NCBI GenBank assembly: GCA_964616135.1
Contig: CAZTTQ010000001.1
Location: 43,875-107,874, forward strand
Reading direction: 5' to 3'
From: an uncultured Gammaproteobacteria bacterium
GTDB lineage: Bacteria > Patescibacteriota > Patescibacteriia > UBA9934 > GWF2-40-263
Length of the DNA stretch: 64,000 nt
Part shown: in pieces, positions 2,221-59,386 of the stretch
Numbering within the stretch: the stretch's first letter is position 1
Layout: each line of letters opens with the position of its first letter
Translations under genes and position numbers: made by a program
Notes under the pieces: generated by a model
Databases searched by the model: none
The model's input: the letters and a program-made list of their open reading frames with translations, nothing else
Told to the model about the DNA's origin: nothing

Positions 2221-3696
2221 ATGGAACTCCTCCTCACACAGGCGAATCCGGCGAAAGTCCTATGCGATACGCTGGCGTTGTTTTGGACGGAAGGAAAACA
2301 AAGCGGGATCACCAAAGAAGTGGATACGGCGTTGGACGGACTGTTGACGCAGGTGTCCGTGGAAGAGGGATTCAAGGGGAAGGCGGGTGAAACGCTCGCG
2401 CTGCGGACCGAGGGGAAATTGGCCGCCAAGCGCGTGCTGTTGGTCGGATGCGGCCCGTTGAAAGAACAGGCGGAGGAGACGGTGCGCGTGGCGGCCGCCA
2501 CGGCGTTGAACGCGGTTAAAAAGACCGGCGGGAAGTTGGTGATCGGCCTGGACGCGTTGAAGGACGTGGGAATGGGCGAAGCCGCCAAGGCGGCCGCGGA
2601 AGGCGCGTTGCTCGCGGGGTATCGGTACGGGCAATTCAAGACGCTGGAAGCGGAAGGGCCCGCGCTGGTCGTTTTGCTCGTTTCGGACGCAAAGGCGTTG
2701 AAGCAGGCGAAAGAAGGATTCGCCCTCGGGAAGCTGTTTGCGGAGGCGACCAAAACCGCCCGCGACTTGGTGAACCACCCGGGCGGGCACCTGACGCCGG
2801 CGGAACTGGCGAAGCAGGCCGAAGCGCTGGTGGCCGGCAAGGCGCGCGTTTCGTTCACGTCGTACGACAAGGCGAAGTTGTCGGAGATGGGCATGGGCGG
2901 GCTGTTGGGCGTCGGGCAGGGGAGCGACCATGACCCGGTGCTCGTCCACATGGCGTACTCGCCCGCCAAGGCAAAGAAGCGCGTGGCGCTGGTCGGAAAA
3001 GCGATCACGTTCGATTCGGGCGGCCTATCCATCAAGACCAGCAAGGGCATGGAGACCATGAAGTGCGACATGGCCGGCGCCGCGGCCGTCATCGGCGCGT
3101 TCTCCGCTATTTCGGCCTTGAAGCCGGACGTGGAAGTGCACGGTATTTTCGGCGCCTGCGAGAACATGGTGAGCGGCAACTCGCTCCGTCCCGGCGACGT
3201 GGTGAAAACCATGGGTGGCAAGACGATCGAAATTCTGAACACGGACGCCGAAGGCCGCGTGACGCTGGCGGACACGCTCCATTACGCAACGACGCTCGAA
3301 CCGGACTACATCATCGACTTGGCGACACTGACGGGCGCCGTCGTGGTCGCGCTCGGGGAGGAAATCACCGGCCTCATGTCCAACGACCCGCGTTTGGCCG
3401 CCAAGGTGAAAGCCGCGAGCGTCGAAGCCGGGGAGAAAATGTGGGAGCTTCCGCTCGAGCCGAACTACACGTTCGAACTGAAGTCCGACGTCGCGGACTA
3501 TAAGAACGACACGAGCCGCAACGGCATGTCGCTGACGGCCGGGTTGCTGCTGCAGGAATTCGTCGCCGGGAAGCCGTGGGTCCACTTGGACATCGCCGGC
3601 CCCGCGTTTGCCGATCGCCCGCACAACGCCTACACCAAAAAAGGCGGCACGGGACACGGGGTGCGCACGTTATTGACGTGGTTGCGCGCGCAGTAG
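2221..3696 (+). CDS. pepA: leucyl aminopeptidase (M17 family)
   Basis: Full-length M17 signature including NTDAEGRL-type motif (NTDAEGRVTLADTL), 491 aa. Confidence 0.9.
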   Translation: MELLLTQANPAKVLCDTLALFWTEGKQSGITKEVDTALDGLLTQVSVEEGFKGKAGETLALRTEGKLAAKRVLLVGCGPLKEQAEETVRVAAATALNAVKKTGGKLVIGLDALKDVGMGEAAKAAAEGALLAGYRYGQFKTLEAEGPALVVLLVSDAKALKQAKEGFALGKLFAEATKTARDLVNHPGGHLTPAELAKQAEALVAGKARVSFTSYDKAKLSEMGMGGLLGVGQGSDHDPVLVHMAYSPAKAKKRVALVGKAITFDSGGLSIKTSKGMETMKCDMAGAAAVIGAFSAISALKPDVEVHGIFGACENMVSGNSLRPGDVVKTMGGKTIEILNTDAEGRVTLADTLHYATTLEPDYIIDLATLTGAVVVALGEEITGLMSNDPRLAAKVKAASVEAGEKMWELPLEPNYTFELKSDVADYKNDTSRNGMSLTAGLLLQEFVAGKPWVHLDIAGPAFADRPHNAYTKKGGTGHGVRTLLTWLRAQ

Positions 3697-3741: not shown

Positions 3742-5265
3742 TTACTCGGCGTCTGCCATTGCCGGGACGAACGTCACGGCGACGACGGACGGGGTGAGAT
3801 GGCGGCCGTTCGGGTGGAACAGGACGACGTCGCCGTCGCGCGGGAAGTAGCGGTGGTTGCCGCGTTCCTGCACGTAGAGCGTCTTTCCGTCCTCGACCGC
3901 CTGTTGGAAGCCGCCCTTGGGGTGGCGCCGCCGCACGATGGTGCCGAGTCGGTACCCCGCCAGCTGGAGATGGCGGCGAAGGGCCTTCTCCAGGCCATCG
4001 TCCTCGCGTCCCAGCTGCCGCCAGGCGACGTACACCTTGGAGGCGTTGGCGGACAGGAGGACCCGGCTCACGGTCTTGGCGTAAAAGCCGTGGCGCTCCT
4101 CCGGCGGCAGCTCCAGGAGGAGCGTGAACAGGAACTGCGCCGTCGGCTTCACGAGGAAGTCCTTCTCGACGGCCGCCAGCCGTTCCGCGAAGCGCGTGCG
4201 CTGGTCGACGGACAGACGTGCCCACTCGTCCGCGGGGACGTCCGAGACGGAATCGAGGCGGTCCAGCGCGTCTCCGACGATGATGTCCGCGGCGGCAGCG
4301 TCGAGGCGGCGCAGGATCCGCGCCCGCGCCTTGACCGTCTCGCCCGGGGCCTTCTCGGCGCAGAGGAGGAGTGCGGTCTCGAGCTCGCGGTTCGTCAGCA
4401 CGGACCAGGGGTTCAACCCGCAGAAAGCCGCCGTCCACTTCTCGGCCGCGGTCGGCCGCGCGTGCGGCGGAAACTCGAGCACGAAGTGGAAGGGGACGTT
4501 GGGCGGGAGACCGGCGTCCATCCGGGCGTTCTGCTCTGCCACCGTCTTCTCGATGGACGGCCAGGCCTTGTCCGGGGCACGGACGAGCTCGTCGTGGCGC
4601 CCGTTGCGCCCGTGTTCGATGCCCAGCCTCCGGACGGTCATCGCGATCGGACTTGCGTCCTCCGGTCGCTCGATCCCGTACCGTAGGAAGTCATGGACGT
4701 CGTTTGCCATCCCCGGTTCGATCCGCGTCCCGCGCAGGCGCTCGAGGAGCGCCTCGGCCATCGTCGCGCGGGAGACGCCTGCCATGGCGGCGGCACGCAC
4801 CCACTCGTTGTTGGTGGCGCCGAAGCGGGGATAGAGATCGCGGACGCAGCGGGTGCGGCCCTCGGGGGAGAGAAGCCGCAGCAGCTCCGGGGAGATGAGG
4901 AAGCTCCGGAAGAACCAGTGGGACGAGAGACGGACGCCCTCGTTCTTCTCCTGCGGATTTCCCTCCGCCCGGTCGTAGAGGCGGACCACGCTCTCCAGGA
5001 AGATGTCCGCGTCGCCGACGATCTGCAGGAACGGTTCCGGGTTCTCCGCGATCCAGCGCATTCCCATGGACACGGGGATCGTCTCGAACCCGCAGGCATC
5101 GATGAGGAGGATGAACCGCAGGAGGTCCGTCGGGGTCGCCGTGCCCGCCTTGACCTTCGCGGGGAAGGCGTCGCGGGCGGCCTGGAGTTCGTCGTAGGCC
5201 GTCCAGGTTCCCGCGATTTCCTGTCCCAGGATCTGTCGTGCGTCGATCAAGCTGACGGTCTGCAT
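3742..5265 (-). CDS. hypothetical protein (~507 aa), no recognisable family
   Basis: Protein-like composition and high GC3; start assigned to MQTVSL (M35) because the first 34 codons have low GC3 and the M35 ATG has GGAG 7 nt upstream; overlapping + strand ORF 3724..4686 has antisense-type composition. Confidence 0.6.
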   Translation of the reverse strand: MQTVSLIDARQILGQEIAGTWTAYDELQAARDAFPAKVKAGTATPTDLLRFILLIDACGFETIPVSMGMRWIAENPEPFLQIVGDADIFLESVVRLYDRAEGNPQEKNEGVRLSSHWFFRSFLISPELLRLLSPEGRTRCVRDLYPRFGATNNEWVRAAAMAGVSRATMAEALLERLRGTRIEPGMANDVHDFLRYGIERPEDASPIAMTVRRLGIEHGRNGRHDELVRAPDKAWPSIEKTVAEQNARMDAGLPPNVPFHFVLEFPPHARPTAAEKWTAAFCGLNPWSVLTNRELETALLLCAEKAPGETVKARARILRRLDAAAADIIVGDALDRLDSVSDVPADEWARLSVDQRTRFAERLAAVEKDFLVKPTAQFLFTLLLELPPEERHGFYAKTVSRVLLSANASKVYVAWRQLGREDDGLEKALRRHLQLAGYRLGTIVRRRHPKGGFQQAVEDGKTLYVQERGNHRYFPRDGDVVLFHPNGRHLTPSVVAVTFVPAMADAE

Positions 5266-5752: not shown

Positions 5753-7279
5753 TCAGAACGACAGGTCTTTGCCGGCGACGAGCGGGTCGCCGTTGACGCA
5801 GAAGCCCTGCGCCATGACGAGGTCCGTGTAGCAGAAGCGGAGAATCTCGACGCGGAGGACGTTGCCCGGAACGGCCCGGGTCGCGTCCATTGCGAAACGG
5901 AAGACCCGTTCGGTCCCGTTTGCAAGCGTCCCGCCGTTTCCCGCCATGTTGATGACTGAGACCGTGGGGGAGATCGCCGTCCGGGTGACATCCGCGAAGA
6001 GTGCGGCGTCCGGCAGGGCGGCGTCCGTGGTCCGAACCGCCTCCGTGCCGCCGTACCACCCGTCGTGGGTGAGGCGGTACCGTACGGAGGTGAGGAGGGC
6101 GTCGTGTCCGGCGGGTGCGGCGGGGTTCACTACGCGGAACGCCAGCGTGTTGGCGAACGACGGGGAGACGGTTCCCGCGGGGGAATCGTCCGTCCGCGCG
6201 GCTTGCGGCATCTGGGGGATCCGGATGAACGCGTAGTCGTGGTGGGACGCGTTCGTCGCGCCGTAGGCGATCTCCGGAACTTCTCCCGTATCGGCGTCCC
6301 GCAGGTCGATGGACCGGAGGGACGCGGCCAGGAGGAAGTTCGGCGCGCCGACGTTCGCGTTCGTCCAACAGAAGACGCCGAGTTCGCCGGATCCATGCAG
6401 GACGAACGGTTGGTCCGCGAACGAGAGGACGGTCCGTCCCTCTTCGGCCGCGGGACGCCGTCCGGATGCCTGTCCCGGAGGCGTGGTTGGCCCCGCGTAG
6501 GAAACGTAGCAGGCGCCGATACGGTCGCGCAGCAAGGAGGAAGACGCCTCCCAGACGTTGGTCCCGTCGAACGGGGCCACGTCCTGGACGACGTCGAGGT
6601 CGATCCTGGCCACGCGGACGTTCCGGTCTCCGGCACGGACGGAGAGGCGGAGGAACTGGAACAGGCCGCCCGGATACGACTGGGTGACCGTGTCCTCGTC
6701 CGGAGACGCGTCCCCGACCGCCACGATGCCGGGCGGCGGGTTTACCAACGGTTCGCATGAGCGGCCGTCCGCGGCGAGGGTTTCCCCCCGTTCGCAGCGC
6801 CGCTTGCACGTGGCGGTTGCCGTGTCGAACAGCCATCCCTCGTCACACGTGACGTCGTAGGCGCAGGATGCATGGCCGGTCTCCCGGTCCATGTTCGGCG
6901 AGAGGCCGTCCGGACACGTGATCGTGACGTCCGGGCACTCCTTTTCGGAGAACACCTCCGCGCCCGTGGAGAGACAGACGTAGAAGATCACTTCTTCCGG
7001 CGGCTGCGTCGTGGGGCACGCGCCCGCGCGCGGGCGGATGGAACCGTCGGCGCAGACGTAGACGCGCTTCTCGACGACCTTCGCAGGACCGCCGAACGGA
7101 TGGCAGGCGATCCCGCCGTCTTCCACCACCGCCCCTTCATCGGGGAGGCAGGGGACTGAGAAGCAGGCGCCGGAGGAGGTCGCGTACGACCCTTCCGGGC
7201 ACGAGGAGGAGACGGGGGCGTCTCCACAGGATGCCAGGGCCGATGCGGCCAGGGCGAAGTACATGAGGCGGGTGCGCAT
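5753..7279 (-). CDS. secreted cysteine-rich lipoprotein, paralog 1 of a tandem family (508 aa)
   Basis: The signal peptide ends in a lipobox (ALASC) and the N-terminal half is cysteine-rich. The C-terminal region aligns with paralog 2 (e.g. VRVDVTGFCYRD / LRVEILRFCYTD). The gene has an ATG start with GGAGGT. Confidence 0.75.
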   Translation of the reverse strand: MRTRLMYFALAASALASCGDAPVSSSCPEGSYATSSGACFSVPCLPDEGAVVEDGGIACHPFGGPAKVVEKRVYVCADGSIRPRAGACPTTQPPEEVIFYVCLSTGAEVFSEKECPDVTITCPDGLSPNMDRETGHASCAYDVTCDEGWLFDTATATCKRRCERGETLAADGRSCEPLVNPPPGIVAVGDASPDEDTVTQSYPGGLFQFLRLSVRAGDRNVRVARIDLDVVQDVAPFDGTNVWEASSSLLRDRIGACYVSYAGPTTPPGQASGRRPAAEEGRTVLSFADQPFVLHGSGELGVFCWTNANVGAPNFLLAASLRSIDLRDADTGEVPEIAYGATNASHHDYAFIRIPQMPQAARTDDSPAGTVSPSFANTLAFRVVNPAAPAGHDALLTSVRYRLTHDGWYGGTEAVRTTDAALPDAALFADVTRTAISPTVSVINMAGNGGTLANGTERVFRFAMDATRAVPGNVLRVEILRFCYTDLVMAQGFCVNGDPLVAGKDLSF

Positions 7280-54386: not shown

Positions 54387-54797
54387 TTACGCTTTGCGTA
54401 CGACGGCGTTAAAGGCGGCGGACGCTTGCTCCGGCGGAATGCCGAACTTGCCCAACTGCTTGATGACCTTTTCTTCCTTGGCGCAGTTGCCGCAGAAATT
54501 GGAGACGTTGCGATCCAACCCGACGTGCGCGTACAGGTCACGCCAGACGGCCAGGCGGTCCATGAACTTTTTTACCGAACCGAGGCTGGATTTCCACAGC
54601 GTGCCGTTCAGGCCGAAGCGCCAGTGCGCCCACAGCTGGCCGAAATGCATCACGTCGCCCCACTCTTCCTTCATCCCCGCCTTGTTCCACTTAACGACCT
54701 CCACGGCGAATTCAACCACCTCCGCCCACACTTCTTTGAAGCGGACGCGGTCTTTTGACGTGAACTTCTCGATGTACTCCCGGATGGTCATGTCCAT
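54387..54797 (-). CDS. MazG-like nucleotide pyrophosphohydrolase domain protein
   Basis: EVVEFAVEVV...EEWGDVMHFGQLW resembles MazG EExxE/EELGD motifs; alternative ATG at 54836. Confidence 0.5.
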   Translation of the reverse strand: MDMTIREYIEKFTSKDRVRFKEVWAEVVEFAVEVVKWNKAGMKEEWGDVMHFGQLWAHWRFGLNGTLWKSSLGSVKKFMDRLAVWRDLYAHVGLDRNVSNFCGNCAKEEKVIKQLGKFGIPPEQASAAFNAVVRKA

Positions 54798-54836
54798 ATG
54801 GCGGCCATGGTACGATATCGCAAACGTTTCGCCCAT

Positions 54837-55229
54837 ATGCCCAGTATTCCCGCCGACCTTCGCAAGGCCCTTGCGGCTAACCCTGTAGTCGCGGCCAAGT
54901 GGAAGGACCTTACGCCCGTCTCCCGCCGGGACTTCACCCGTTGGATCGAAGGGGCGAAGCAAGAAGCGACCCGCAAGCGCCGCGTCGTGGTCGCGTGCGA
55001 CAAACTGAAGCGCGGCGACCGCCGCCCGTGCTGTTACGCCGTGGTCCCGATGCCGCTCTACCGCGCCCTGGGCGCCAACCCAAAGGCCAAAGCGGCGTGG
55101 AGCGCCCTTTCCGCCGACCACAAGCGCGACCTGGTCGACTGGGTCGAATCCCCCAAGCCGCCGGAGACGCAAGCGGACCGGATCAAACAAGCGTGCGTAA
55201 AACTCGCCACTGGGAACGTCCGTGCGTAG
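54837..55229 (+). CDS. YdeI/OmpD-associated family protein (tandem helical repeats)
   Basis: LRKALAANPVVAAKW...RRDFTRWI and second repeat YRALGANPKAKAAW...RDLVDWV. Confidence 0.5.
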   Translation: MPSIPADLRKALAANPVVAAKWKDLTPVSRRDFTRWIEGAKQEATRKRRVVVACDKLKRGDRRPCCYAVVPMPLYRALGANPKAKAAWSALSADHKRDLVDWVESPKPPETQADRIKQACVKLATGNVRA

Positions 55230-55933: not shown

Positions 55934-56374
55934 TTATTCAAGGTTGAGCGCGCGTGTCGGTTTCATGATGGCAAGCGGGTCTGTTTTCCACGCGTCGGAA
56001 ACGTCCGCGTACAGTTCAAGCTCGTTTCCGTCCGGGTCCAGGATGTAGATGCTGTGCGTCACGCCGTGGTCGCCCGTGCCGATGATGGGCACGCCTTTCT
56101 CCTTCAGCTCCTTGTACGCCTGCTTGGCGGCTTCCGGCCCGTCGCCGATCTTGAAGCCGATGTGGTACAGCCCGGGCTTGGTTTCTTCCTTGCGTTCCGG
56201 TTCCCCGCCCACTTCCAGCAGCAACATTTCATGGTGCGTGCGCCCGGCGGAAAACGCCGCCGCTCCCGGCCGGCGCGTCAGTTCCTGAAACCCAAGCGTG
56301 TCGCGGTAAAAATCCGCGGAGCGCTGCAGGTCGCTCACGAAGAGCACGACATGGCCGAGTTCGAGGATGTGCAT
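55934..56374 (-). CDS. VOC-family protein (glyoxalase I-like)
   Basis: MHILELGHVVLFVSDLQRSADFY...HIGF typical glyoxalase-fold metal ligands. Confidence 0.7.
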   Translation of the reverse strand: MHILELGHVVLFVSDLQRSADFYRDTLGFQELTRRPGAAAFSAGRTHHEMLLLEVGGEPERKEETKPGLYHIGFKIGDGPEAAKQAYKELKEKGVPIIGTGDHGVTHSIYILDPDGNELELYADVSDAWKTDPLAIMKPTRALNLE

Positions 56375-56381
56375 AGAAATT

Positions 56382-56398
56382 TATTCCCCTTTCGTTAA
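56382..56398. repeat. left copy of 17-bp imperfect direct repeat TATTCCCCTTTCGTTAA bounding low-GC island
   Basis: 15/17 identity with 58533-58549; positioned exactly at the GC-content break. Confidence 0.45.
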
Positions 56399-56441
56399 GC
56401 CGTTGTCGGAAACGAACTAGACCAGCGGGGTATAGGAAAAA

Positions 56442-58238
56442 CTATAGGTTTGTATCTATCCAATCAAAGATCTGGTTGAATCGAGTAATTGTGTCGATAT
56501 GAATTTTTTTCTTAGTAATTGATCCATCCGACACTTTCTCAAAAAAAGATTTAGCAAATACAATCTTCCGTTTTTCACCGATGGACTCAGCTGGATCTGT
56601 TTTTTGAACAATTTTATCGTCAATTAACTTTAAGTCATCCAAATGAAGTAGGTTTTCTACGGATGAAATTCCAATAGTGATATACATCTTGGAGGCAGCA
56701 GCTCCCTCGTCTTTTTCGAAGAGATGTTCTTTGATTTCTTCGTAAGTTTTTTGAGAATCTTTTCCTCGCGAAGAATCGTCATCGAAAATTGCGACCCAAG
56801 AAATACCGTAACCAATACAAAATGAAACTAGAGTGTATTGTTTTCTGACACCTATTCCCGGTATGAAGGCGTAGTCTGCAATATCACGTTTGAGGAGGGT
56901 TCTCATTGCACTGTAGTAATAAAAATCTGAAACTCCTTCCAGAATCACACTCTTTTTATTTGTCAGCCCAAAATCGCTTACCGAGAAGCCAATAGCATTT
57001 GCCACTGGCTGGAGTGCATCTTGTTTATTCTGAGAATCAATTTTGGAGGAAGTGATATTCTCTATCAATGTTCCTTTGGTTTTATCATTTACGATGAGGT
57101 GTATTCTTTCAAGATGATCTGTCCTGATCAAATTTGGCGAATGAGTTGAGTAGAGAAATTGATGCCCCGTTTTTGTTAGAGATTCAAATACATTGAGGAT
57201 GTCGGTCTGAGCTTTTATATGAAGATAGAGTCCGGGTTCATCCGCTAAAACAATCAATTCTCTCTCATGACCACTCGCCTGTAATTCCATCCAAAAAGAA
57301 AGAAACCATACCAATCCCTTACTCCGCATTCGGGGACGAATTTTTTGTTTATCCTTTGTCTCAATATAAAAACTTACAAAAGTGTCATCTTCGGAAGATC
57401 GTTTTTCGAATTTATAGGCAATTTTTACTCTATTATCACCGTGAATTTGTTGCTTCCATGCTTTTGTAAAATCAATCGATATAGCTTCATTATGTTTTTC
57501 CTCAATAGAGTCTCTCTTCAAGTCATCTAGACTGTACAGAGTTTTAAAATCTGCACCTGATATTTTTTCAAAGTTTTTTACGGCCTTATACCCTTTTGAA
57601 TCTTTTTTGTCGCTTTTTAGATCCTTAAGCGAGAAGGTGTCTGGCAATAGATCGCAGAAATCATTAAACAAGATGATTTTAGGAGTATGGTTCCAGAATA
57701 ACTCAGCGACTTCTGAATTCTGATCGTCAGTAAGTTCAATAATCTTTTTCCTCTCCTTCTTTACTGGAGCAACTTCTGCCTCCACATTAACGTCTTCTTC
57801 AAGAATAGAGCTACGAAAGATCTGAAAAACTGCTTCAGGGATAGATGTCTGCACCTTTTTAGAGGGATTTAGCGTTCGAGTAATTTTAAAATCTTTTACC
57901 GTGCGTTTCAGTTTTGGGATGTCAATTAATGATCCGACTTTAGCTCGCTCAATCTCATTCTGTTCACCAAATGTTTTTTCAATTTCATCCCAAAAATCAG
58001 AATCCGATTCTTCAATTTCGTATGTGCATGACACCTCTTGAATTGGTGACTCAAAATCAAATGGTATGGAATCTGATTCAAATTCTGCGTTTTCAAAAGC
58101 AGCCAGACCCTCTAAAATAGAGCTTTTACCAGACTCATTTTGACCAGCGAAAATTGCAATTCTCCCATTACCTAAAGAAATCTCTCCAGTATCCTGAATG
58201 GACTTATAATTCTTAATTCGGAATGATTTCAATTTCAT
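56442..58238 (-). CDS. OLD-family ATP-dependent endonuclease (ABC-type ATPase + C-terminal Toprim), standalone
   Basis: The ATPase half has Walker A GQNESGKSS, Walker B LIVLADEPGLYLH and H-loop STHSP. The Toprim half has Glu (VILEGVSD) and DxD (IFDDDS). Gene GC is ~35% against a ~65% background. Confidence 0.75.
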   Translation of the reverse strand: MKLKSFRIKNYKSIQDTGEISLGNGRIAIFAGQNESGKSSILEGLAAFENAEFESDSIPFDFESPIQEVSCTYEIEESDSDFWDEIEKTFGEQNEIERAKVGSLIDIPKLKRTVKDFKITRTLNPSKKVQTSIPEAVFQIFRSSILEEDVNVEAEVAPVKKERKKIIELTDDQNSEVAELFWNHTPKIILFNDFCDLLPDTFSLKDLKSDKKDSKGYKAVKNFEKISGADFKTLYSLDDLKRDSIEEKHNEAISIDFTKAWKQQIHGDNRVKIAYKFEKRSSEDDTFVSFYIETKDKQKIRPRMRSKGLVWFLSFWMELQASGHERELIVLADEPGLYLHIKAQTDILNVFESLTKTGHQFLYSTHSPNLIRTDHLERIHLIVNDKTKGTLIENITSSKIDSQNKQDALQPVANAIGFSVSDFGLTNKKSVILEGVSDFYYYSAMRTLLKRDIADYAFIPGIGVRKQYTLVSFCIGYGISWVAIFDDDSSRGKDSQKTYEEIKEHLFEKDEGAAASKMYITIGISSVENLLHLDDLKLIDDKIVQKTDPAESIGEKRKIVFAKSFFEKVSDGSITKKKIHIDTITRFNQIFDWIDTNL

Positions 58239-58438
58239 AGGGTATGTCAGAAACTGGTTCAGAGTTATCTATTAAACTTATCGACTTTGGGTAGGAGCTC
58301 GCTCGCAAGAATATTGATCAACACATCGCGACACACCCCAATCGCTGCGCTGCCCAGCTTCCCAAAATTATTCTTTTGAATCTTCGTAGTTTGCATCATA
58401 AACGAAAGGATGATCGTCAACGGAGTCAGAAACATTAA

Positions 58439-58475
58439 TACTCCCGTCGGATTTGAACCGACCAGGCCACAAGCA
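58439..58475 (-). tRNA. tRNA 3'-half-like fragment (T-arm GTCGG-TTCAAAT-CCGAC + acceptor 3' strand GGGAGTA); no complementary 5' half found
   Basis: Canonical T-stem-loop read on minus strand; cannot complete a cloverleaf, so probably an att-site remnant/pseudo-tRNA. Confidence 0.35.
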
Positions 58476-58531
58476 AGCCCCTGCCAGAATCGACAATGTT
58501 GTAAAGGTTCTCTTCTTCTAACGTATCACCC

Positions 58532-59386
58532 CTATTCCCCCTTCGCTAATTCAACCGCTTTCTTTCCCACCATCATTGCCAGGCCGCCGCCGGGGACGAA
58601 GTTGGCCAATTCTTTTCCAAATTCAAAGATCTCGTCGTTGCTGAAGGAACGGCGGAGTTTGTCCGTGATCTTGTTCGCCTTGGGACGCAGTTCGCCCGTG
58701 ACGCCGTCATAGGAGACGGTGACGCGCTTGTCCTTGGCCTTCCAGTGGAATTCAAACGTGTAGATCGGCACGAAGTAAAGCGCCAGTTCATTAATGGCGA
58801 TTTGTTCGTCCAAAATCTGGTCGGCCTGGATGGGCTTGATGAGCGCGTTTACGACTTTGCGAACGAGGAAGGCGGGCTTCGCCTCGAGTGCCACGATCGG
58901 CGTGCCGTCTTTGGTCAGCGCGTCGGTGGTTTCGATGGGTTGGCTCAAGTACGTCAGGTATTTGGCAAAGCCCGGGTCCGCTTGGCCCGTTTGCGCGTCC
59001 ACGATTTCTTCTTGCCGGTATTCTTCCACGCAGCGTTCGACCCCTTCCACTTCAAACGTCTTTCCCTGCGGAGGCACGGTAAACGACGTACCGAGCAATT
59101 CGATTTCCTTCACCATCGGCTCCACGGGAACGTGGTAGGCCTTGCGGCGCTTGTATTCAAAGCGGGAGGAACCGAGCACGCGCCAAAAGGCGTCGTAGCG
59201 CTTTTCCTCATACACGACGTCGATGTCTTCCGGCAGCGGGCGGCTGAACAGCCCGGCGAGGAGACCGAAGGCTTTGACTTTGTGCGCCTGGGCGAGCTCC
59301 TTGGCTTTTTCCATGCCAAGGACGTCTTCCAGGACCAGAAGCTTTTCGCCGTCGATCTTGATGTTGCTGATTCCTTCGCCGGGCAT
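58532..59386 (-). CDS. hypothetical protein (284 aa)
   Basis: Clean ORF with moderate GC; no family recognised. Confidence 0.55.
   Translation of the reverse strand: MPGEGISNIKIDGEKLLVLEDVLGMEKAKELAQAHKVKAFGLLAGLFSRPLPEDIDVVYEEKRYDAFWRVLGSSRFEYKRRKAYHVPVEPMVKEIELLGTSFTVPPQGKTFEVEGVERCVEEYRQEEIVDAQTGQADPGFAKYLTYLSQPIETTDALTKDGTPIVALEAKPAFLVRKVVNALIKPIQADQILDEQIAINELALYFVPIYTFEFHWKAKDKRVTVSYDGVTGELRPKANKITDKLRRSFSNDEIFEFGKELANFVPGGGLAMMVGKKAVELAKGE
58533..58549. repeat. right copy of direct repeat TATTCCCCCTTCGCTAA
   Basis: Overlaps stop codon of 58532..59386. Confidence 0.45.

Follow-up and report, generated by a model that had tools for sequence, protein, structure and literature searches.

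In a 64-kb window, by which we mean the whole stretch of 64,000 nucleotides analysed here (contig CAZTTQ010000001.1, positions 43,875 to 107,874), we found a low-GC islet that carries a single gene for an OLD-family ATPase/Toprim protein and is bordered by a duplication of its target sequence. We consider it probable that the islet is a single-gene OLD cassette, which came from a low-GC Patescibacteria donor, was inserted into a GC-rich, Uhrbacteria-like genome with duplication of the target, and descends from a lineage linked to restriction-modification (R-M) systems. The insertion site is empty in close relatives of the host, the catalytic residues of the protein are conserved, and its nearest homologues are embedded in R-M operons.

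The low-GC islet and its borders

The GC content drops from 0.54-0.65 to 0.33-0.40 between approximately 56350 and 58450 (300-nt windows). This is the sole low-GC stretch of the 64 kb, as all remaining 1-kb bins reach at least 0.538. Between its bordering repeats (56399..58532, minus strand), the islet has a GC content of 0.38 versus 0.632 for the remainder of the window, and GC at third codon positions is 0.32 in the OLD gene versus 0.65-0.89 in ten neighbouring genes. The unique part, delimited by its composition and its absence from the relatives L103-L106, measures 2134 bp, and the insertion including one repeat copy 2151 bp. Its only long open reading frame (ORF) is the OLD-family gene (598 aa, 56442..58238, minus strand), which is intact and co-oriented with the surrounding genes. 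These genes are, upstream, a conserved Patescibacteria hypothetical gene of 284 aa without Pfam domain (58532..59386, minus strand), the 3' end of which is the insertion target, and, downstream, a host gene of the glyoxalase/VOC family (146 aa, 55934..56374, minus strand), which directly follows the 284-aa gene in relatives with an empty site.

The islet is flanked by two copies of a 17-nt direct repeat, which are identical at 15 of 17 positions; numerous other families of short repeats occur in this region. On the minus strand, the right copy (58533..58549) reads TTAGCGAAGGGGGAATA, and the left copy (56382..56398) reads TTAACGAAAGGGGAATA, followed by AATTTCT and the ATG of the glyoxalase gene. 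A search of both strands of the 64 kb, allowing up to three mismatches, returned no further copy of this 17-mer, with 0.05 expected by chance; since the second copy is located exactly at the opposite compositional border, its position is not a chance event. The right copy comprises the native last five codons and the first two stop-codon bases of the 284-aa gene, a sequence that is conserved in the relatives L018, L019, L020 and L102-L106. The left copy retains the TAA stop of the ancestral junction and a Shine-Dalgarno (SD)-like AAAGGGG ahead of the glyoxalase start codon.

The corresponding empty site was revealed by relatives that were located via cluster members of the 284-aa flank protein. 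Relatives of the 284-aa protein are encoded by metagenome-assembled genomes (MAGs) of Uhrbacteria and other Patescibacteria; the closer ones come from Logan and ENA assemblies, and GTDB species representatives, with at most 76% amino-acid identity and poor synteny, were uninformative as to an empty site. Four independent assemblies from four samples (L103-L106), which belong to the same 90% protein cluster and are 85-92% identical at the nucleotide level, contain the exact empty site: the junction sequence is GCGAAGGGGGAATAA directly followed by TCTATG (also given as GTCGAATTGGCGAAGGGGGAATAA and as GGGGGAATAA, each followed by TCTATG), and the 146-aa glyoxalase gene starts 3 nt after the stop of the 284-aa gene. 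In blastn alignments, nt 464-2817 of L103 correspond to window positions 60887-58533 and nt 2805-3264 to window positions 56394-55932. Thirteen nucleotides of the single-copy site (L103 nt 2805-2817) thus align to both window copies, which is the signature of target duplication. The 17-nt flanking repeat is therefore a real target duplication, and the 284-aa protein was left unaltered by the insertion, still ending in ELAKGE before its stop.

An earlier first-pass annotation of the DNA had noted the GC drop at 56.4-58.5 kb and had read the repeats as borders of a site-specific integration, to be compared with an empty site. The drop, the repeats and the empty site are all borne out. Integration is supported to the extent that the target was duplicated; its site-specific nature is presumed from the duplication alone, because the islet has no integrase or transposase.

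The same junction in other close relatives

The stop of the 284-aa gene (window 58529-58534) is a variable spot, which holds three different low-GC single-gene cargos, or none, in close relatives (L018:4325-4645; L019:1351-1951; L020:1323-1330; L102:7855-7866). In L018 (284-aa protein 97% identical), another gene begins 5 nt past the stop, and L019 (92%) contains a different low-GC insert of 598 bp, followed by the glyoxalase gene; homology of both to the window ends at the junction. L020 (85%) and L102 (same 90% protein cluster, 88% nucleotide identity) are free of cargo and joined to a homologue of the window gene at 54387..54800. The inserts of the window, L018 and L019 share a similar GGG(G/T)G(A/T)AT(A/G) start right after TAG. 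The start of the L018 cargo, ATGCCCGAT, resembles the start of the native downstream gene in L020, ATGCCCGAC. This similarity hints that the target may be duplicated at L018 as well; the L018 contig ends before the second junction. Neither the L018 nor the L019 cargo has a Pfam, PHROG or PADLOC match.

Domain architecture and catalytic residues

The N-terminal half of the 598-aa protein (residues ~1-395, 57054..58238, minus strand) is an ABC-type ATPase with a dimerisation-type insertion between its two lobes. It contains the Walker A motif GQNESGKS (K38), a signature-like RSKGL (residues 305-309), the Walker B/D-loop motif LADEPGLYLH (D333, E334) and the H-loop THS (H366), and residues 1-371 match the Pfam families AAA_15 (1e-19) and AAA_21 (5e-12). 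The C-terminal half (residues ~425-598, 56445..56966, minus strand) combines a Toprim domain with a helical region and includes E434, D438, D486-x-D488, S526-x-E528 and K558. Among PADLOC models, Old scored best (4e-24); matches to further ABC-ATPase defence models, including AriA, PtuA and GajA, lie in the ATPase half. No NCBIfam model exceeded its curated cut-off, and Pfam OLD-like_TOPRIM matches in the right place with an E-value of 0.047, below its cut-off.

We based the Toprim assignment on alignment to the Class 1 OLD protein of Thermus scotoductus (TsOLD), on family conservation and on a fold search. TsOLD (6P74) is the only sequence match in the PDB (6e-5, or 1.3e-10 with a family profile of 42 sequences). 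In the HMMER alignment, E434 falls on Ts E377 and D486/D488 on Ts D431/D433, which are metal-A ligands whose mutation lowers cleavage (PMC7049728). D438 occupies the position of Ts D381 (EGxxD), S526-x-E528 fits the metal-B ligands Ts S478-x-E480, and K558 fits the conserved lysine (K550 in P2). Across 42 aligned homologues with identities of 42-68%, E434, D438, D486, E528, K558, Walker A G32-S39, D333/E334 and H366 are invariant and D488 nearly so, while GQNESGKS, RSKGL, LADEPG and THS are invariant or nearly invariant as motifs. An AlphaFold2 model computed from an alignment reached a mean pLDDT of 84.6. Its top Foldseek matches in the PDB were TsOLD (6P74, 4.5e-15), GajA (8U7I, 8SM3, 8X5I) and the Retron-Eco8 OLD protein (9LP9), so that OLD classes 1, 2 and 3 rank above the heads of SMC, Rad50 and PtuA. 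Judged by its sequence and predicted fold, the protein is an OLD-family ATPase/Toprim with the full set of predicted catalytic residues, as the first-pass annotation had proposed.

Homologues and their restriction-modification context

We obtained at least 554 significant homologues of the protein. Its own NCBI record is the only 100% match, and the next best homologue is 67% identical. Homologues with a named source originate from Yanofskybacteria, Paceibacterota, Minisyncoccia, Saccharibacteria and Parcubacteria, and almost all are proteins of Patescibacteria MAGs. The family members are all of low GC content (gene GC 0.26-0.45). The suggestion of a low-GC donor agrees with these nearest homologues from low-GC Patescibacteria, and the same gene at native GC was not encountered in relatives.

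The four closest homologues for which the context is available all lie within type I R-M operons whose genes overlap at their stop and start codons, in the gene order hsdM-(DUF4145)-hsdS-OLD-hsdR-YgjP. In 80 further metagenomic loci, homologues with at least 55% identity are nearly all R-M-linked; the R-M-linked loci of the closest clade (55-67% identity) fall in L010-L017 and L022-L034. Three of these loci (L029-L031) have the order hsdM-OLD-hsdS-hsdR, and in L027 the gene is part of a type III-like HTH-OLD-Mod-HEPN-like-Res operon. L032 (55% identity) is not R-M-linked: here, the OLD gene is paired with an HTH-M78 peptidase gene (L032:5932-6999), which ends 1 nt before the OLD start and matches PADLOC PD-Lambda-2_B (4e-30) and RmrA/CapP-like regulators, and this may be a distinct two-gene arrangement. 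A clade at 44-47% identity is mostly not R-M-linked.

A neighbour-joining tree places the window protein within the R-M-embedded, low-GC Patescibacteria clade, and the other sampled members of its immediate subclade are all encoded inside R-M operons, mostly of type I and between hsdS and hsdR. HsdM, HsdS, HsdR and YgjP from the relatives' loci gave no tblastn match in the 64-kb window. Nested in an R-M-embedded clade and with no R-M homologue in the window, the gene is, by phylogeny and local gene content, an orphan of an R-M-linked OLD lineage.

Some of the relatives' loci also have possible signs of mobility. Two of the four closest loci adjoin a large serine recombinase gene (L010:918-2246, L013:1807-3129), with tRNA genes nearby, 1-2 kb further out (L026:467-730, L013:53-130). 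Serine-recombinase homologues are likewise found close to many solo OLD genes in the clade at 44-47% identity, and these neighbours are consistent with carriage on integrative elements. At five loci (L058, L061, L075, L083, L095), single OLD genes of low GC content reside in markedly GC-richer DNA (L095: gene 0.37, upstream 0.65-0.69), which suggests repeated solo transfer of the OLD gene. L079 (37% identity) is a single-gene low-GC islet with an apparent 29-nt imperfect direct repeat (3992-4020 and 5854-5882, 79% identical); these repeats hug the start and stop of the OLD gene in AT-rich sequence, and chance is not excluded. A phage origin was considered and rejected, as relatives in IMG/VR are at most 33% identical and GenBank phages gave one weak match only.

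Comparison with known systems

Published neighbourhood-based classes of OLD proteins comprise single genes, Gabija, retrons and PARIS (PMC10568477). With Class 1 (P2 Old, TsOLD, E. coli YbjD), the window protein shares an ABC ATPase with dimerisation insert that precedes a Toprim domain and a C-terminal helical region, the metal-A (E, DxD) and metal-B (D, SxE) ligands and conserved lysine, and a single gene without helicase or retron partner; TsOLD is its best match in the PDB by both sequence and fold. It differs in that its Foldseek identity to TsOLD is 13%, the HMMER match lies mostly within residues 329-489, its score with the Pfam Toprim model is below threshold, and its own clade is R-M-embedded and largely restricted to Patescibacteria. 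The gene context is that of Class 1: the neighbours are the 284-aa hypothetical and the glyoxalase gene, Rfam detected no non-coding RNA (ncRNA), and the 64 kb contain no R-M homologues. The designation as a class-1 standalone OLD in the first-pass annotation thus holds for the local context and not for the phylogeny; the label is contextual because relatives at 55-67% identity are R-M-embedded, in operons of type I or a type III-like kind.

Gabija GajA (Class 2) and Retron-Eco8 OLD (Class 3) have the same two-domain fold and were ranked second and third among the families of the fold search. Unlike these, the window gene adjoins no GajB/UvrD-like helicase, reverse transcriptase or ncRNA; in particular, the gene downstream is the glyoxalase gene and not a gajB helicase. 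The earlier statement that no UvrD-like partner is adjacent can be extended to retron and other partner genes.

Accessory defence genes are known from inside type I R-M loci, such as PrrC in EcoprrI and the Campylobacter rlo genes. They are resembled by the closest relatives of the window gene, which likewise sit between hsdS and hsdR, or hsdM and hsdS, and combine an ABC ATPase with a nuclease. The window copy is located outside an R-M locus, and its nuclease is an OLD-type Toprim rather than the PrrC anticodon nuclease or DUF4435. In function, the R-M-embedded relatives may be likened to PARIS, for which the anti-restriction protein Ocr is the trigger (PMC9122126). From the positional likeness to PrrC/rlo and the presumed functional likeness to PARIS, a guard-of-restriction role appears plausible for the clade. 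Our literature search, which was incomplete and is no proof of novelty, found no description of R-M-embedded OLD nucleases.

The junction behind the 284-aa gene recalls the P2/P4 hotspots of defence genes (PMC9122126) in that it holds differing low-GC cargo or none across close relatives. It differs from these hotspots in being a chromosomal site of Patescibacteria with single-gene cargos, of which only the OLD cargo is recognisably defence-related. Among the features of integrative genomic islands, we found deviant composition, an empty site and flanking direct repeats derived from the target, and we found neither an own integrase or recombinase nor integration into a tRNA gene, since the window contains no tRNA gene.

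Proposed origin and function of the cassette

We propose that the cassette entered exactly at the stop-start junction of the 284-aa gene and the glyoxalase gene, with duplication of 13-17 nt of the target. Insertion could have been mediated by a trans-acting recombinase or could reflect illegitimate recombination with staggered ends, either of which fits the duplication. The duplication also provides the glyoxalase gene with a second copy of the SD-like AAGGGG, which in the ancestral arrangement was contained in the 3' end of the upstream gene. As the OLD gene is parallel to the surrounding genes, it is probably transcribed by read-through from the host operon.

In the established biology of OLD proteins, a two-metal Toprim nuclease is controlled by an ATPase dimer; lambda is excluded by P2 Old, and defence by GajA and Retron-Eco8 OLD is of an abortive or degradative kind (PMC10568477, PMC7049728). 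The window protein would most likely act, as other OLD nucleases do, as an ABC-ATPase dimer whose nucleotide state gates the two-metal Toprim nuclease. Upon sensing of phage infection, it would degrade nucleic acid and thereby bring about abortive infection or exclusion. Since its nearest relatives form part of R-M operons, of type I or a type III-like kind, the ancestral role was probably that of a second line behind restriction, perhaps triggered by inhibition of restriction, and the window copy would have become detached from this context. According to a review, broad defence by a cellular Class 1 OLD on its own had not been demonstrated (PMC10568477), although a 2026 note describes anti-phage phenotypes for E. 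coli YbjD (PMC13261556).

A wider reading is more doubtful, and we offer it tentatively: the clade may constitute an undescribed, neighbourhood-defined OLD class in Patescibacteria type I and type III-like R-M operons, a guard that would fire when restriction is blocked and that could move as an integrase-less single-gene cassette duplicating 13-17 nt of a stop-start junction. Such a cassette is possibly a general route for small cassettes in reduced genomes.

Alternative explanations

Several points weigh against the proposed transfer of a defence cassette. The islet contains no gene for a recombinase, integrase or transposase, its contents being the OLD gene and a 44/56-aa ORF, and a repeat search and inspection revealed no evident terminal inverted repeats at its ends. 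No recognisable promoter or SD sequence was found upstream of the OLD gene. The nearest homologue, at only 67% identity, would not represent the actual donor, and the inspection for R-M partners covers 64 kb of the genome only. The defensive role of this OLD clade is inferred, and a gene whose usual partner is an R-M complex could lack activity by itself.

The last of these points leads to the alternative that survives best, although we regard it as unlikely: the gene could be a stranded, functionless orphan, either a fragment of a larger R-M/OLD mobile element or a cassette in need of R-M partners, which has not yet decayed. This would fit the R-M operons around all other sampled subclade members, where the frequent stop/start overlaps suggest co-translation and complex formation, as well as the window's lack of R-M genes and the OLD gene's lack of its own promoter or SD sequence. 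The ORF, however, is of full length (598 aa versus 603-606 in the relatives), all invariant residues of the family are intact, including the catalytic ones, and more distant relatives (33-47% identity) are usually not R-M-linked. Nor do hsdS or hsdR remnants flank the OLD gene: candidates for such remnants were sought with blastn-short and tblastx in the non-coding ends of the islet (291 nt upstream, 63 nt downstream), and nothing was found. By the same searches, these ends have no homologue in the R-M/OLD loci, the host relatives or the rest of the window, and similarity to the relatives' loci is bounded by the start codon and the stop of the OLD gene. The composition has not been ameliorated, which points to a recent insertion, and too little time may have passed for decay, or its absence, to inform.

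Still less probable is that the protein represents a fused PARIS-type (AriAB) system rather than OLD proper, in which case it would sense anti-restriction proteins and cleave tRNA. PADLOC AriA does match at 2e-22 over residues 1-371, the score with fused AriAB is 9e-13, and the R-M linkage of the relatives would suit the sensing of anti-restriction proteins, given that PARIS is triggered by Ocr (PMC9122126). The AriAB match is, however, mostly to the N-terminal ATPase. The C-terminal 205 aa have no match to DUF4435 (PF14491, the domain of PARIS AriB) even at E<=10, OLD-like_TOPRIM being the only relevant match of this half, and TsOLD, GajA and Retron-Eco8 OLD are the top matches by sequence and fold. 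Finally, an artefact of assembly or binning, in which low-GC DNA of a different organism was joined chimerically into a high-GC contig, might be suspected from the metagenomic source and the abrupt change in composition, but is very improbable, as a chimeric join would not make the imperfect target duplication, both flanks align collinearly with relatives, both flanking ORFs are intact, and the independently assembled Logan contig L001 has the identical right junction (100% over 2383 nt).

Other features of the islet and its surroundings

A T-arm-like hairpin is located inside the right border of the islet (58439..58462, minus strand; stem-loop at 58446-58462). Its sequence, GTCGG-TTCAAAT-CCGAC followed by GGGAGTA, forms a 5-bp stem with a TTCAAAT loop and resembles a T arm with acceptor strand; the tRNA 3' end that would correspond to this fragment is GTCGGTTCAAATCCGACGGGAGTA. 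The first-pass annotation had taken it for a tRNA 3'-end fragment. The hairpin is present, and its tRNA origin is unconfirmed: ARAGORN found no tRNA in the window, the hairpin region has no Rfam match at E<=10 and an unremarkable fold stability (z=0.21), and the T-loop motif is not over-represented (2 found versus 1.0 expected). Moreover, the hairpin matches none of 26 tRNAs from the fetched loci, and its exact 24-mer is without match in IMG/VR viral contigs. The three extra perfect base pairs of the stem have an estimated chance of ~0.02-0.05 per window, which is mildly improbable. A tRNA fragment is thus an unconfirmed lead and not a finding, and the implied link between integration and tRNA was not upheld, as the target consists of the last five codons and stop of a protein-coding gene.

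A small ORF upstream of the OLD gene (58265..58435, minus strand) could encode 56 aa, or 44 aa from an ATG at 58399. This putative gene is called as a 44-aa gene in L001, and it has neither a Pfam, PHROG or PADLOC match nor a tblastn match in the related loci.

Outside the islet, a second segment is specific to the window in comparison with L103 (55258-55931, 674 bp, GC near native at 0.52). It carries a 141-aa glyoxalase/3-dmu-9_3-mt-like gene and a Zn-ribbon gene and sits between the stop of the 146-aa glyoxalase gene and a terminator-like hairpin; no flanking direct repeats were found there. At 54798-54840, the starts of a 137-aa gene (minus strand, start 54800) and a divergent OmdA/YdeI gene (plus strand) overlap or nearly abut, leaving almost no room for an intergenic promoter.

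Conclusion

The feature in the window is a clean but fairly ordinary acquisition of a defence gene. It is of textbook quality in that natural relatives display the site in its occupied and empty states and with alternative cargos. The host belongs to a candidate-phyla-radiation (CPR) lineage, on whose defence systems we found little published. Possibly new parts could be the R-M-linked clade and the integrase-less cassette with its duplication of a stop-start junction, which are inferred or pertain to the relatives. A more useful lead lies in the OLD clade that is wired into R-M operons, as it is missing from the current neighbourhood-based classes (PMC10568477). The orphan copy described here represents a natural test of OLD function without R-M partners, and it bears on whether single-gene OLD proteins defend by themselves.

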